64,000 bases of DNA from Pseudomonas phage vB_PaePA10145phi1_MKR2, in the sequence record PV565008.1. One strand, written 5' to 3'. The notes beneath the pieces are model-generated. The model was given only the letters and a program-made list of their open reading frames with translations. It did not search any database and was not told the DNA's origin. The position numbers were made by a program, and so were the translations under genes. Shown here piece by piece: positions 42,900 through 45,208 of this stretch (the first letter of the stretch is position 1; every line of letters starts with the position of its first letter).

Positions 42900-43685
42900 A
42901 TGCATCGTCGAACTATGTACAGATTTAGCTTATCATATTCCAATAAACTTATTAATAATAACCCACTTGGTTTTACAGTCGAGAGTTATCTTGAAAGCTG
43001 GTTTGACAAACTCAAGTGTCGATTAACTAAAGGTTATACCAAAAGCCATGCTATTCATTTTCGTGGAAGTTGGAAATACTTTGAATTAGATCAATATAAG
43101 AACAATGCTTTCTTCAATCAATATCACATGGTGATGCAGTCACTAGAAGATCTAGAAAGAAAGATTAGTGGAGTGATTGGGTTAAGTATCAAAATCACTA
43201 AACCAGAACGACATTTATTTCATGTTCTATTTAACCATGAAAAGATTATTCTATCCCCTAATGGCATTATCTTTGATGTACGTGTTCCAAAACACACCGT
43301 GATAGCTAATCCTGATGTTATGGGATATCGTAATTGCAATGTAGATAAACTGACGGTATTTGGCGAGCGCTCTAAAGTTAACTATGTGGTTAAACAAGTA
43401 CGTTATGCCTTAAAGCAGAAAGGGGTGACAACTGTTGCCAATAGTTCAATGACTCGTTTTTTATATGACCTATTTCATCCAAAATACAGAGACAATCAAA
43501 TTTATAACTACGGCATGACTATGTCTGATGTTTATGTAATGGCCGTATTCAAAAATGGGTATACGGAAATCTATGGTAAAGATGTAGGTGAAATATTTGA
43601 AAGTCATACTCTAGATTTTCTAGAACGTGAATACATGATCTGTGGACAATATTTTCCTAAGCTATCCAGAGGGATGCTAGTATGA
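42900..43685 (+). CDS. hypothetical protein, translationally coupled to downstream AAA+ ATPase (track ORF trimmed: first 25 codons overlap a terminator hairpin)
   Basis: 261-aa ORF from ATG after terminator; ATGA overlap with 43682. Confidence 0.55.
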   Translation: MHRRTMYRFSLSYSNKLINNNPLGFTVESYLESWFDKLKCRLTKGYTKSHAIHFRGSWKYFELDQYKNNAFFNQYHMVMQSLEDLERKISGVIGLSIKITKPERHLFHVLFNHEKIILSPNGIIFDVRVPKHTVIANPDVMGYRNCNVDKLTVFGERSKVNYVVKQVRYALKQKGVTTVANSSMTRFLYDLFHPKYRDNQIYNYGMTMSDVYVMAVFKNGYTEIYGKDVGEIFESHTLDFLEREYMICGQYFPKLSRGMLV

Positions 43686-45208
43686 TTATAGAAACCTTAT
43701 TGCAATATTACGCCATGTTCATCGATATCTCTCAGAAGAATATGGTTATGGGTGGAGCTATCGGAATGGCAATTGGTGGTTTATTCTGGACCACTCTAAG
43801 AGGCTTACCAAGTAAACTAGCTAGGTTCGCATTAAATCAGTTTACAGTTAGTCTACATATTACCAACATGGGTAATGGGCTGAACGAGAAGAACTTTGAT
43901 TGTTTCATGGAATGGTATATTAAGCAGCCATTAGCTGGATTTAATCGACGTTTTTCAACTAATGTTGATGAGCAAAGTTATAGTGCAACTAAACAGAAAA
44001 TTGGTGTTGGTTTTGGCTTACATTTCTTTCTGTTTAAAGGTAGGTTATTCTGGTTTGTAAAAGCACGCCGGGATAGTCAAAATGCCAGTCGAGATCAAAT
44101 GGATATTACTATCCGTGGATTATCTAGGAGTAGTAAACTAATTATTGATTTAGTAGATGCTTACCATTGGCGCCCAAATGAAAGGGGTCTGACTATTTCA
44201 CATTGGGATGGTAACCGTTGGGGCAATGAGATTGAAGTTACTAAACGCGATATCAACACGGTGATTTTGCGTAAAGAGATCAAAGAAGAATTCCTTAATA
44301 AGATTGAAGAATTCTATTCTGATCGGAAATGGTACGATGATCGTGGACTACCCTATAAATTCACTTGTGTTCTAACAGGTCCTCCTGGTACTGGTAAAAC
44401 CTCAATCAGTAAAGCGATTGCCTCACATTTTAATAAAAATGTTAGTGCACTGTCATTAGCCTCTATGACCAATGATAGTCTTAGGCGGGCATTTACTACA
44501 CTACCTAAAGGTAATATTCTTCTAATTGAAGATTTCGATGATACCCCGGCAGTTAAAGATCGTGTTTTAAATGATCCTGTAAAACTAGATAAAGAGATAA
44601 AGGAATTAGAGAGGAAATATTCTTTTATTGATTTAATTGAAAAATATCCGTCTGCATGGGTTGATCTTAAAGATGACTATGAAGGATACTCTGTAGTTGG
44701 GTTTAATGACACCATCTATATCTTTGATGAAAATAGCGATGATCAAGGTTTTGGGATAAGTGCTTATGCTATGGCTGAACTGGGTGTTTCAAAATGGGCC
44801 GATGAAAAAGATCCATTATTTACCACAATTCGCCGATGGTGGAAATTAAAGAAGTGCATGAAGAATGGAATCACGTATGAACAACCAGCTAGCGGATTAA
44901 CTTTGTCAGCTCTATTAAATGGGCTAGATGGCATTGTTCCACTAGATGAGACTATGACCATTCTAACTACAAACCATCCTGAGAATATTGATAAAGCACT
45001 TCTAAGGAAAGGTCGCGTTGATTACATGGTGGAGATTCCATATCTACGAGATCAAGAAGTTAGGGAGTATATTAAACTAATGTTCCCTGACTTCGATATT
45101 CCTGAAGATATCAGATTTAAAGATCAGCCAGGGTGTGATGTAATGGCGGCTTTTTCAAATAACCGTTATGACCCTAATGCTTTTATCAATAGTCTATTGA
45201 AATATTAA
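43682..45208 (+). CDS. AAA+ ATPase with N-terminal hydrophobic segment (BCS1-like architecture); paralog of the truncated ORF at 2-634
   Basis: 508 aa; N-terminal GGAIGMAIGGLFWTTL; Walker A LTGPPGTGKTS, Walker B ILLIEDFDD, SALLNGLDG, ALLRKGRVDY. Confidence 0.8.
   Translation: MIIETLLQYYAMFIDISQKNMVMGGAIGMAIGGLFWTTLRGLPSKLARFALNQFTVSLHITNMGNGLNEKNFDCFMEWYIKQPLAGFNRRFSTNVDEQSYSATKQKIGVGFGLHFFLFKGRLFWFVKARRDSQNASRDQMDITIRGLSRSSKLIIDLVDAYHWRPNERGLTISHWDGNRWGNEIEVTKRDINTVILRKEIKEEFLNKIEEFYSDRKWYDDRGLPYKFTCVLTGPPGTGKTSISKAIASHFNKNVSALSLASMTNDSLRRAFTTLPKGNILLIEDFDDTPAVKDRVLNDPVKLDKEIKELERKYSFIDLIEKYPSAWVDLKDDYEGYSVVGFNDTIYIFDENSDDQGFGISAYAMAELGVSKWADEKDPLFTTIRRWWKLKKCMKNGITYEQPASGLTLSALLNGLDGIVPLDETMTILTTNHPENIDKALLRKGRVDYMVEIPYLRDQEVREYIKLMFPDFDIPEDIRFKDQPGCDVMAAFSNNRYDPNAFINSLLKY

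Follow-up and report, generated by a model that had tools for sequence, protein, structure and literature searches.

What role might a membrane-anchored AAA+ ATPase of the Bcs1 type play in a jumbo phage? Bcs1 has been regarded as a mitochondrial specialty; where mitochondria lost the Tat pathway, Bcs1 became the exporter of the Rieske protein, and it is among the very few machines known to let a protein cross a membrane fully folded and without leaks. We address this question in a 64,000-nucleotide stretch (the window) of Pseudomonas phage vB_PaePA10145phi1_MKR2 (PV565008.1), a phiKZ-type jumbo phage, in which an open reading frame at 43682..45208 (plus strand, as for every feature below) encodes gp286, the 508-residue ortholog of PHIKZ286. 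The initial annotation, made from the sequence alone, had read this gene as a BCS1-like ATPase that is coupled to an upstream partner and has a second copy at the start of the window.

gp286 has the complete architecture of Bcs1

We find that gp286 is a genuine Bcs1-type AAA+ protein with the full three-part architecture of N-terminal anchor, Bcs1-specific domain and classic AAA module, in the domain order first proposed for it. The protein is a full-length member of phrog_7485 (E=8e-182 in PHROGs); Pfam BCS1_N (PF08740; gathering cut-off 28.1) scores 44.1 bits on residues 33-194 (43778..44263), aligned over profile positions 2-182 of 182, and Pfam AAA recognizes residues 230-288 (E=1.5e-16). 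A phmmer search of PDB sequences aligns gp286 to yeast Bcs1 (6sh3, E=4e-38) through anchor, middle domain and AAA module alike. These matches lie far beyond what chance would give. The AlphaFold2 (AF2) monomer model (pLDDT 85.9) agrees, with the best 12 Foldseek matches all being chains of Bcs1 heptamers (E between 1e-25 and 1e-20); the isolated Bcs1 AAA domain ranks next, ahead of YjoB. The Bcs1-specific region, which aligns to the yeast protein, also superposes in the Foldseek matches. Five residues of this domain, R89, G110, G112, W180 and R189, are invariant in the family. The spacer between anchor and AAA module is ~155-190 residues long, rather than the ~250 originally assigned to the middle region.

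The first part of the AAA module, residues 196-290 (44267..44551), carries Walker A (GPPGTGKT, 233-240) and Walker B (ILLIED, 279-284) and aligns to yeast Bcs1 residues 263-323; the second part and the lid, residues 403-508 (44888..45205), hold sensor-1 N431 and the arginine fingers R442 and R445 within the SRH motif ALLRKGRVDY, with gp286 403-469 as the portion covered by the yeast alignment. The Walker and SRH motifs picked out initially are therefore present, and they are family-invariant, with G233, G236, T237, G238, K239, E283 and D284 unchanged throughout the family alignment in the first part, and N431, R442, G444, R445 and D447 in the second. With these residues intact, gp286 is apparently an active ATPase. 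In one gp286 homolog, P0027, an intein sits in the P-loop.

How such a module would act on a substrate is suggested by the stretch linking Walker A to Walker B, SALSLASMTNDSLRRAF, which aligns to yeast Bcs1 ILNLSENNLTDDRLNHLM and is likewise short and free of aromatic residues. Reading this alignment by eye, we find no aromatic-hydrophobic-Gly pore-loop-1 motif between the two Walker motifs of gp286, which argues against a threading motor. This bears directly on an early suggestion that gp286 could remodel or extract host envelope or defense proteins, which would make it an unfoldase comparable to Msp1/ATAD1 or FtsH. A membrane anchor combined with a classic-clade AAA module, early expression that fits host takeover, an accessory and non-essential status as is often found for anti-defense genes, and a fast-evolving loop as the most variable part of the protein would all suit an extractor; nonetheless, we consider this activity quite unlikely because gp286 lacks the aromatic pore loop and is Bcs1-like. 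Moreover, Pfam detects no M41 zinc-protease or peptidase domain in gp286, and the FtsH name is rejected, as NCBIfam FtsH_fam, for which the cut-off is 600 bits, scores 44.8 and covers only the C-terminal part of the AAA module (residues 407-462). PADLOC matches to IetA and TRIP13 span only the P-loop and the residues leading up to it, ~65 in all, and we do not assign gp286 to a defense system. A proteasomal-ATPase name was likewise discarded, as the scores fall far under the curated NCBIfam cut-offs.

A conserved N-terminal helix is the presumed membrane anchor

Residues 21-39 of gp286 (43742..43798) form a Gly-rich, glycine-zipper-like hydrophobic segment, MVMGGAIGMAIGGLFWTTL, which was noted at the outset and which we presume to be the membrane anchor. 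Its mean Kyte-Doolittle (KD) value of 1.51 is borderline relative to the usual threshold of 1.6, and a hydrophobic helix is kept at this same position in 33 of 33 homologs (KD 1.3-2.2). AF2 models the anchor as part of one long helix, residues 21-54, and the phmmer alignment with yeast Bcs1 starts at gp286 residue 27, within the anchor. Lysine and arginine are enriched on the C-terminal flank of the helix across the gp286 family, which points to an N-out orientation with the AAA module in the cytoplasm. We thus predict that gp286 inserts N-out into a lipid membrane and that its Bcs1-specific and AAA rings would both lie on the cytoplasmic side.

YjoB is a soluble chaperone that has no membrane anchor, and its similarity to gp286 raises the alternative that the N-terminal helix is not membrane-spanning and that gp286, like this Bacillus subtilis protein, is a soluble or peripherally attached assembly chaperone, a ring helping early phage complexes to fold or assemble, e.g., components that the ChmA shell requires to accumulate. 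YjoB (7W42) has a Bcs1-like N-domain joined to an AAA module, is the next-best fold match to gp286 after Bcs1 and also matches it in sequence (E=7e-17); the borderline hydrophobicity of the anchor, the lower ChmA upon PHIKZ286 knockdown and the presence of gp286 in high-molecular-weight (HMW) fractions could be understood in the same way. However, the YjoB fold match is much weaker, forming a second-best group at E~1e-14 versus 1e-25 for Bcs1, and gp286 differs from YjoB in its conserved hydrophobic helix, which is found in every homolog, shows a positive-inside charge pattern and lines up with the anchor region at the N-terminus of yeast Bcs1. We therefore judge a soluble or peripheral chaperone to be unlikely, and favor a membrane-anchored gp286.

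A fast-evolving insertion splits the AAA module

The C-terminal AAA module was initially described as contiguous, but it is split by an insertion of ~110 residues that had been missed, located between Walker B and the LTLSALLNGLDG strand (residues ~291-402, 44552..44887). Both the Pfam and the PDB alignments gap at this point, passing from gp286 residue 287 to 403 as yeast Bcs1 passes from 323 to 337. The linker from Walker B to LTLS (gp286 residues 287-405) measures 114-119 residues in phiKZ, PhiPA3, P0004 and P0005, versus 16-66 in 29 other gp286 homologs, and this long loop, along with an orphan upstream partner, distinguishes the phiKZ/PhiPA3 clade from other phage BCS1 orthologs. Sequence identity within the insertion is 19-27%, compared to 56-73% in the flanking domains, and the insertion is therefore fast-evolving; AF2 models it as a small alpha/beta subdomain with pLDDT values of 50-88. 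A mini-intein origin was considered and rejected, as there are no intein boundary residues and the length varies continuously across the family. As deduced from AAA topology, the insertion would be located at the position of pore loop 2, which lines the entrance to the ring, and this hypervariable element and the co-translated gp285 may be the most likely lineage-specific determinants of cargo or adaptor choice.

PHIKZ208 belongs to a different AAA+ family

The window opens within a second AAA protein gene, with 2..634 encoding the C-terminal 210 residues of PHIKZ208; the full PHIKZ208-equivalent gene (L002:3534-4634) specifies 366 residues and belongs to phrog_14322. The initial annotation had taken this protein for a second copy of the gp286 AAA module, and the two genes for duplicated membrane-associated machines. 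The modules are indeed related, with hhalign giving 99.6% (E=2e-24) when they are compared alone, but PHIKZ208 is not a copy of gp286, since BLAST likeness is restricted to the AAA motifs, and the N-domains compared alone return an hhalign probability of 0.3%. A whole-protein profile match of 99.5% stems wholly from the AAA part, and we accordingly set aside the idea of a degenerate Bcs1. Pfam AAA is the only match to PHIKZ208, BCS1_N is found neither in this protein nor in any of the 120 relatives among the matches listed, and the N-terminus is hydrophilic with no hydrophobic anchor, so the case for a duplicated membrane-associated machine does not hold.

The best PDB match to PHIKZ208 is the Bcs1 AAA domain (E=3e-7), and among solved structures it is closest to Bcs1, Afg2 and Cdc48. 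It did not turn out to be a conventional clamp loader, as no clamp-loader family is found in PHROGs, Pfam or NCBIfam and the sole trace of one is a sub-threshold Rad17 P-loop match (E=0.09, 13.1 bits vs 23.8). As judged from these comparisons, PHIKZ208 is an independent AAA+ protein of a different family that is predicted to be soluble and to have in common with Bcs1 only the type of ATPase module. The two phage proteins are alike in this module, in their early expression, in their HMW sedimentation and in being non-essential (PHIKZ208 is an early gene, non-essential in the lab; PMC12571901). PHIKZ208 differs in having no anchor, BCS1_N domain or insertion and in its unrelated N-domain, and the distribution of its family is also distinct from that of gp286, extending to Campylobacter and Vibrio phages.

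gp285 is a coupled partner in a few phages

The gene upstream of gp286, at 42900..43685, encodes gp285, a 261-residue orphan protein that is orthologous to PHIKZ285 and assigned to phrog_24803 in PHROGs. As first described, it overlaps the gp286 gene by four nucleotides (ATGA, 43682-43685), and the two genes are translationally coupled. Homologous gp285-gp286 pairs are found in PhiPA3 and in one metagenomic phage: word-indexed and exhaustive HMMER searches recover as relatives of gp285 only PhiPA3 gp346 (59%), fragments, and one 250-residue metagenomic protein encoded upstream of P0004 (25%, E=4e-17). We find no match to gp285 in Pfam, NCBIfam, PADLOC or PDB sequences. The AF2 model, derived from three sequences, has a pLDDT of 56.8, and a Foldseek search of the PDB with this low-confidence model gives nothing significant, the best of several generic ferredoxin-like matches being at E=0.012; gp285 is left here with no functional assignment.

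The partnership does not extend across the family. gp285 is dispensable and is precisely missing from SL2-type Phikzviruses that retain gp286; in SL2, the same terminator hairpin and ribosome-binding site sit directly 5' of gp286. In the window, this intrinsic terminator (42847..42872), an 11-bp stem followed by a T-run between gp284 and gp285, marks the 5' border of the gp285-gp286 unit; RNA counts fall ~5-fold from PHIKZ284 to PHIKZ285 (PMC12571901 supplement). A tblastn search with 13 window proteins across 22 full-length gp286-family loci reveals no shared neighbor gene, ruling against a conserved operon and establishing gp286 as a stand-alone unit. The coupling proposed initially is thus real where the pair exists, but it involves an orphan family and is not a general feature of gp286 loci. 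A wider partner family was also considered, as a 275-residue ORF of phiHQ and the Bcs1-like gene of that phage overlap by 4 nt, L010 has a 273-residue ORF upstream, and both ORFs have short motifs in common with gp285; hhalign gives only E=0.007 and a probability of 5%, and homology is not established.

Published data place gp286 early and outside the essential gene set

phiKZ capsids are assembled at the membrane, late in infection. Expression of PHIKZ286 follows a different course, with control RNA counts at 5, 10, 15, 20 and 30 min of 3541, 4784, 1564, 955 and 1011, and of 2168, 2531, 782, 397 and 304 for PHIKZ285; the counts of both genes remain high under ChmA knockdown (PMC12571901 supplement). 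These published data show that PHIKZ286 is transcribed early, from 5 min with a peak at 10 min, and independently of phage-nucleus formation; PHIKZ285 is likewise an early gene. Antisense oligonucleotide (ASO) knockdown of PHIKZ286 leaves plaque-forming units (PFU) unaffected and reduces ChmA (scored '++'), and PHIKZ286 appears in the list of non-core genes (PMC12571901). Tn-seq recovers 55 insertions and 26,387 reads in PHIKZ286, 32 insertions and 26,130 reads in PHIKZ285, and 13 reads in chmA (PMC12676376). PHIKZ286 is thus dispensable for plaque formation in PAO1 (PMC12571901, PMC12676376), and no phenotype therefore points to a cargo.

From comparative genomics, Iyer et al. (2021, PMC7824862) proposed that phage BCS1 orthologs act close to the membrane in assembly of the virion or prohead, loading the head with folded proteins; these data speak against such a role. 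The family is widespread among large-virion phages, as that proposal would lead one to expect. Early expression, however, conflicts with it: at 20-30 min the PHIKZ286 transcript has dropped ~4-fold, whereas the rise of the major head protein comes late, and PHIKZ286 is still expressed when infection is arrested before nucleus formation. Plaques are, in addition, undiminished by either knockdown or transposon disruption, and we hold a function in virion assembly to be very unlikely for gp286.

The ATPases PHIKZ208 and PHIKZ286 are found in HMW fractions on sedimentation (PMC10914614), a behavior that, for PHIKZ286, fits any large oligomer. [quoted passage not shown] Taken at face value, the cross-links would make gp285 and gp286 modulators of translation that are bound to host 70S ribosomes. 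Yet a co-translationally inserted membrane protein and its coupled neighbor would, while nascent, accompany ribosomes, co-elution at high mass is also expected of a large ring, and the folds of gp285 and gp286 hint at no RNA or ribosome binding, which together make this the most improbable of the functions considered here. The cross-links to ribosomal proteins (PMC10449902) suggest either another site of action or merely nascent chains.

A membrane-anchored ring that may handle folded proteins

The reading that we favor, at about an even chance of being correct, is that gp286, the phiKZ-lineage Bcs1 ortholog, forms a membrane-anchored ring early in infection, with folded proteins as its substrates and an accessory role. 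Such a ring would open and close a large cavity with ATP, as in Bcs1, and the cavity would hold folded cargo or move it at or across the membrane, with no threading of unfolded chains; its function would be host- or condition-dependent, and exerted early in infection. We infer the translocation step purely from homology. Bcs1/BCS1L (yeast 6SH3 and 9GS2; mouse 6UKO and 8T14) is the best match to gp286 in both sequence and fold and has the same order of anchor, PF08740 domain and classic AAA module, as well as the short, aromatic-free segment between Walker A and Walker B. In contrast to Bcs1, gp286 is made by a phage early in the bacterial cytoplasm, contains ~110 residues inserted after Walker B, is dispensable in the lab, is only ~20% identical and is not known to have a Rieske-type cargo. 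If the Bcs1 analogy holds, the Tat pathway, which also carries folded proteins across the bacterial inner membrane, would be a functional analog only, as it has no sequence or structural kinship with Bcs1 and is driven by the proton-motive force rather than by ATP.

A stronger version of this model, which we put forward as a speculation that is unlikely to be correct, is that the phage ring, made within minutes of genome injection, is a true ATP-driven translocase of folded proteins in the infected bacterium, carrying phage proteins out of the cytoplasm across the inner membrane or the membrane of the early-infection (EPI) vesicle, with the insertion and gp285 selecting that cargo. The EPI vesicle encloses the injected phage genome. 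As a corollary, mitochondrial Bcs1 could share ancestry with the viral family. Mitochondrial Bcs1 lacks close counterparts among prokaryotes, as a scan of 185,579 species genomes with narrow patterns gives a single, partial match.

The initial annotation regarded AAA+ machines of this kind as unusual phage cargo, a view that is not sustained. In 2021, Iyer et al. (PMC7824862) had already described Bcs1 orthologs across groups of jumbo phages, and we find 155 phage records in the phrog_7485 family, from phages of Pseudomonas, Serratia, Klebsiella, Erwinia, Ralstonia, Brevundimonas, Vibrio, Caulobacter and others; Bcs1-type proteins are also present in many giant viruses, making the fold common in large viruses and proteins like gp286 an already known kind. 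The practical weight of the finding is limited because the gene is dispensable in the lab and the family was pointed out in 2021. With that proviso, gp286 offers a complete and apparently active counterpart of Bcs1, expressed in the first minutes of infection by a model jumbo phage, and thus a tractable bacterial system outside mitochondria, and it may help account for what large phages do with folded proteins at membranes, traffic at the EPI vesicle included. For annotation, these assignments correct several public records that name these genes FtsH, capsid protease or capsid decoration protein, and they set PHIKZ208 apart from the Bcs1 family.

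Identity and architecture of gp286

Several P. aeruginosa Phikzvirus genomes, PA02 and vB_PA32_GUMS among them, match the region 42800-45300 with 100% identity; phiKZ, in whose numbering the ORFs at 42900-43685 and 43682-45208 are PHIKZ285 and PHIKZ286 (gp285 and gp286), matches it with 96.6%. The initial annotation described the second ORF as a BCS1-type ATPase with a hydrophobic, Gly-rich segment at the N-terminus, Walker A and B motifs, the motif ALLRKGRVDY and an ATGA overlap with a 261-aa ORF, and we find all of these features in gp286, which is 508 aa long. Four concordant lines bear out the identification and make gp286 almost certainly a Bcs1 ortholog. 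Pfam BCS1_N matches over its whole profile (44.1 bits; gathering score, 28.1) and adjoins a split AAA match, and yeast Bcs1 is the top phmmer match among PDB sequences (E=4e-38), in an alignment that begins within the hydrophobic helix and also covers the middle domain and AAA module. An AF2 model built with 33 homologs as input is confident (mean pLDDT 85.9), and Foldseek returns Bcs1 heptamer chains as its best 12 matches (E 1e-25 to 1e-20); the Bcs1 AAA domain on its own ranks next, and YjoB of B. subtilis comes after it.

An N-terminal helix at residues 21-39, with a mean Kyte-Doolittle value of 1.51 that is slightly below the usual threshold, has an equivalent in 33 of 33 homologs (1.3-2.2). 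Positive charges cluster at its C-terminal flank, which predicts the topology of Bcs1 itself, N-out with a cytoplasmic AAA module; a rival reading is a YjoB-type soluble chaperone. The presumed anchor lies ~155-190 aa from the AAA module, a shorter middle region than the ~250 aa first estimated. Every catalytic residue is invariant across the family (G233-K239, E283/D284, N431 and R442/R445), and, as in Bcs1, the segment from Walker A to Walker B is short and aromatic-free. This favors a cavity-type mechanism over substrate threading, with an extractor or unfoldase as a rival reading. A metagenomic Bcs1-like homolog of 807 aa, P0027, carries a LAGLIDADG-type intein inside the Walker A P-loop (GPPGTGK/AQPLD...VVTHN/TSIIKAL); inteins are usually located at sites that cannot be lost.

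The motifs of a classic AAA module are in place but not contiguous, as an insertion of ~110 aa splits the module (the alignment to yeast Bcs1 is broken from gp286 287 to 403, which corresponds to yeast 323 to 337). The linker from Walker B to LTLS (gp286 residues 287-405) is 114-119 aa long only in the clade of phiKZ, PhiPA3 and two further homologs, P0004 and P0005, and 16-66 aa across the rest of the family. Within that clade the insertion keeps its length but evolves faster than any other part of the protein, with 19-27% identity vs 56-73% for the remaining domains of the phiKZ, PhiPA3 and P0004 proteins. This clade-specific hypervariable insertion is a new detail. AF2 models it, with moderate confidence, as a small alpha/beta subdomain, and AAA topology would place it at the position of pore loop 2, which lines the entrance of the ring.

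gp286 is a known kind of gene, correctly identified, and not the unusual phage cargo first supposed: by tblastn, 155 phage records covering many hosts contain relatives, far past the nucleus-forming phages, and BCS1 orthologs were reported in 2021 in all three major jumbo-phage groups by Iyer et al. (PMC7824862), beyond which full-text searches pairing Bcs1 with phage terms gave nothing further on phage Bcs1. Among 185,579 prokaryotic species genomes, a pattern scan gives one partial match, weak negative evidence given how narrow the patterns are. Among the BFVD fold matches are many proteins of giant viruses, some named Bcs1; Catovirus, Klosneuvirus, Medusavirus, Pandoravirus and Clandestinovirus encode many Bcs1-like proteins, often several per genome, and these may be relevant to how the family arose.

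Public records for orthologs of 42900-45208 are misnamed (GenBank MT995928, PQ093904, ON631220). The U5 record names the gp285 and gp286 orthologs 'capsid decoration protein' and 'capsid maturation protease', and the phi9_PA9 and OMKO1 records name gp286 'FtsH zinc metalloprotease'. We reject the FtsH and protease names, as the protease domain is absent and FtsH models score far under cut-off.

gp285 and the gene neighborhood

The 4-nt ATGA overlap of gp285 and gp286 is real; the coupling to an upstream partner does not generalize. gp285 has no match in Pfam, NCBIfam, PADLOC or PDB sequences, its AF2 model is poor (pLDDT 56.8) with no significant fold match, and very large protein searches return only PhiPA3 gp346 (59% identity), fragments, and one 250-aa protein (25% identity, E=4e-17) encoded directly 5' of another insertion-bearing Bcs1-like gene. 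It is absent from SL2, OMKO1, Bobae and fMGyn-Pae01; in SL2, gp286 directly follows the same terminator and ribosome-binding site, so that the absence is a clean one-gene indel. No neighbor is conserved across 22 full-length Bcs1-like loci. With the orphan status of gp285 and its absence from SL2-type phages, this makes the coupling a lineage-specific addition outside the core machine, and the narrow, dispensable nature of the partner is a further new detail. ORFs of ~275 aa adjoin other insertion-bearing Bcs1-like genes in phiHQ (L008:2572-3399) and a metagenomic phage (L010:4854-5675) and have short motifs in common with gp285, e.g., YMIxGxYxPxLxxxML and VxGE...K; as distant equivalents they lack statistical support, the overall similarity being colinear but non-significant (hhalign E=0.007, probability 5%).

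A strong intrinsic terminator hairpin (42847-42872) separates gp284 from the gp285-gp286 unit, and published RNA counts drop ~5-fold over it (PHIKZ284 ~13-19k vs PHIKZ285 ~2-2.5k; PMC12571901 supplement), which suggests attenuation rather than full termination. Of the neighbors, only gp282 (40504-41031; 175 aa, no Pfam match) has clear homologs close to Bcs1-like genes (52-57% identity), namely in PhiPA3 and the metagenomic phages L005 and L010, and in L005 it lies immediately 5' of the Bcs1-like gene; it is not kept in more distant Bcs1-like loci.

PHIKZ208, the second AAA protein

The truncated ORF at 2-634, taken initially for a second copy of the same AAA module, is the C-terminal 210 aa of PHIKZ208 (366 aa), which shares with gp286 the AAA part and not the N-domain (profile comparison, 99.6% for the AAA parts alone and 0.3% for the N-domains alone). 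PHIKZ208 has Pfam AAA as its sole Pfam match and a hydrophilic N-terminus, BCS1_N is found in 0 of the 120 relatives listed, and its nearest solved relatives are Bcs1 AAA domains (E=3e-7). It belongs to a distinct soluble family (phrog_14322) that is distributed differently, and is neither a clamp loader nor, given its hydrophilic N-terminus, unrelated N-domain and lack of BCS1_N, a second membrane machine. The gene before it, PHIKZ207, just 5' of the window start (2774-3430 in L002, the record with full-length PHIKZ208), carries the annotation of a DprA-like recombination mediator, with a sub-threshold Pfam DNA_processg_A match (E=1.8e-4); this is a hint that gp208 may act in a DNA-related setting that has nothing to do with gp286.

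Timing, dispensability and proposed function

Early timing has been shown by others: RNA counts of PHIKZ285, 286 and 208 are high by 5 min, peak at 10 min, drop by 15-20 min and remain high under ChmA knockdown, a profile like that of the early genes gp284 and gp74 and opposite to that of the major head protein (PMC12571901 supplement). For phage BCS1 orthologs, Iyer et al. suggested a part in membrane-proximal assembly and in loading heads with folded proteins (PMC7824862); the early profile argues against such a late role as head-assembly factor, a new argument on this hypothesis. Published work also places the two ATPases in large assemblies, with 'ATPases PHIKZ208/-286' in high-molecular-weight Grad-seq fractions (PMC10914614). 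SEC-MS and XL-MS find 285 and 286 with 70S ribosomes, as a ribosome-associated factor would be, but the authors caution that nascent chains are possible (PMC10449902).

Dispensability is likewise established elsewhere. ASO knockdown of 286 leaves plaque counts unchanged and lowers ChmA accumulation ('++'), that of 208 scores '+' for ChmA reduction, and both genes are listed as non-core (PMC12571901); Tn-seq recovers 55 insertions (26,387 reads) in PHIKZ286 and 32 (26,130 reads) in PHIKZ285, compared with 13 reads in chmA, and an isolated orf208 insertion mutant is viable (PMC12676376). The ~26,000 reads in each of PHIKZ285 and 286 are ~10-fold above neighboring non-essential genes (PMC12676376 tables) and could reflect a jackpot, a hot spot for insertion or a small gain in fitness when the genes are disrupted.

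Insertion into the membrane, the stoichiometry of the ring, translocation and the part played by gp285 are all inferred. gp286 is most likely an early, N-out anchored, ring-forming Bcs1-type ATPase that would bind folded protein cargo in a large cavity, on the cytoplasmic side of a lipid membrane, and either hold it or move it across. Its function would be accessory, probably host- or condition-dependent, with the variable insertion and gp285 as candidate lineage-specific cargo or adaptor determinants, and is approachable by experiment.

Elsewhere in the window, seven tRNA genes (Thr, Asn x2, Asp, Met, Pro, Leu) cluster on the minus strand at 50718-56665, and the sign of GC skew flips near 50 kb, the coding-strand switch point. 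gp290 (48048-48578) has a weak, sub-threshold Pfam match to TYW3 methyltransferase (E=0.0017, 18.1 bits vs a cut-off of 27).
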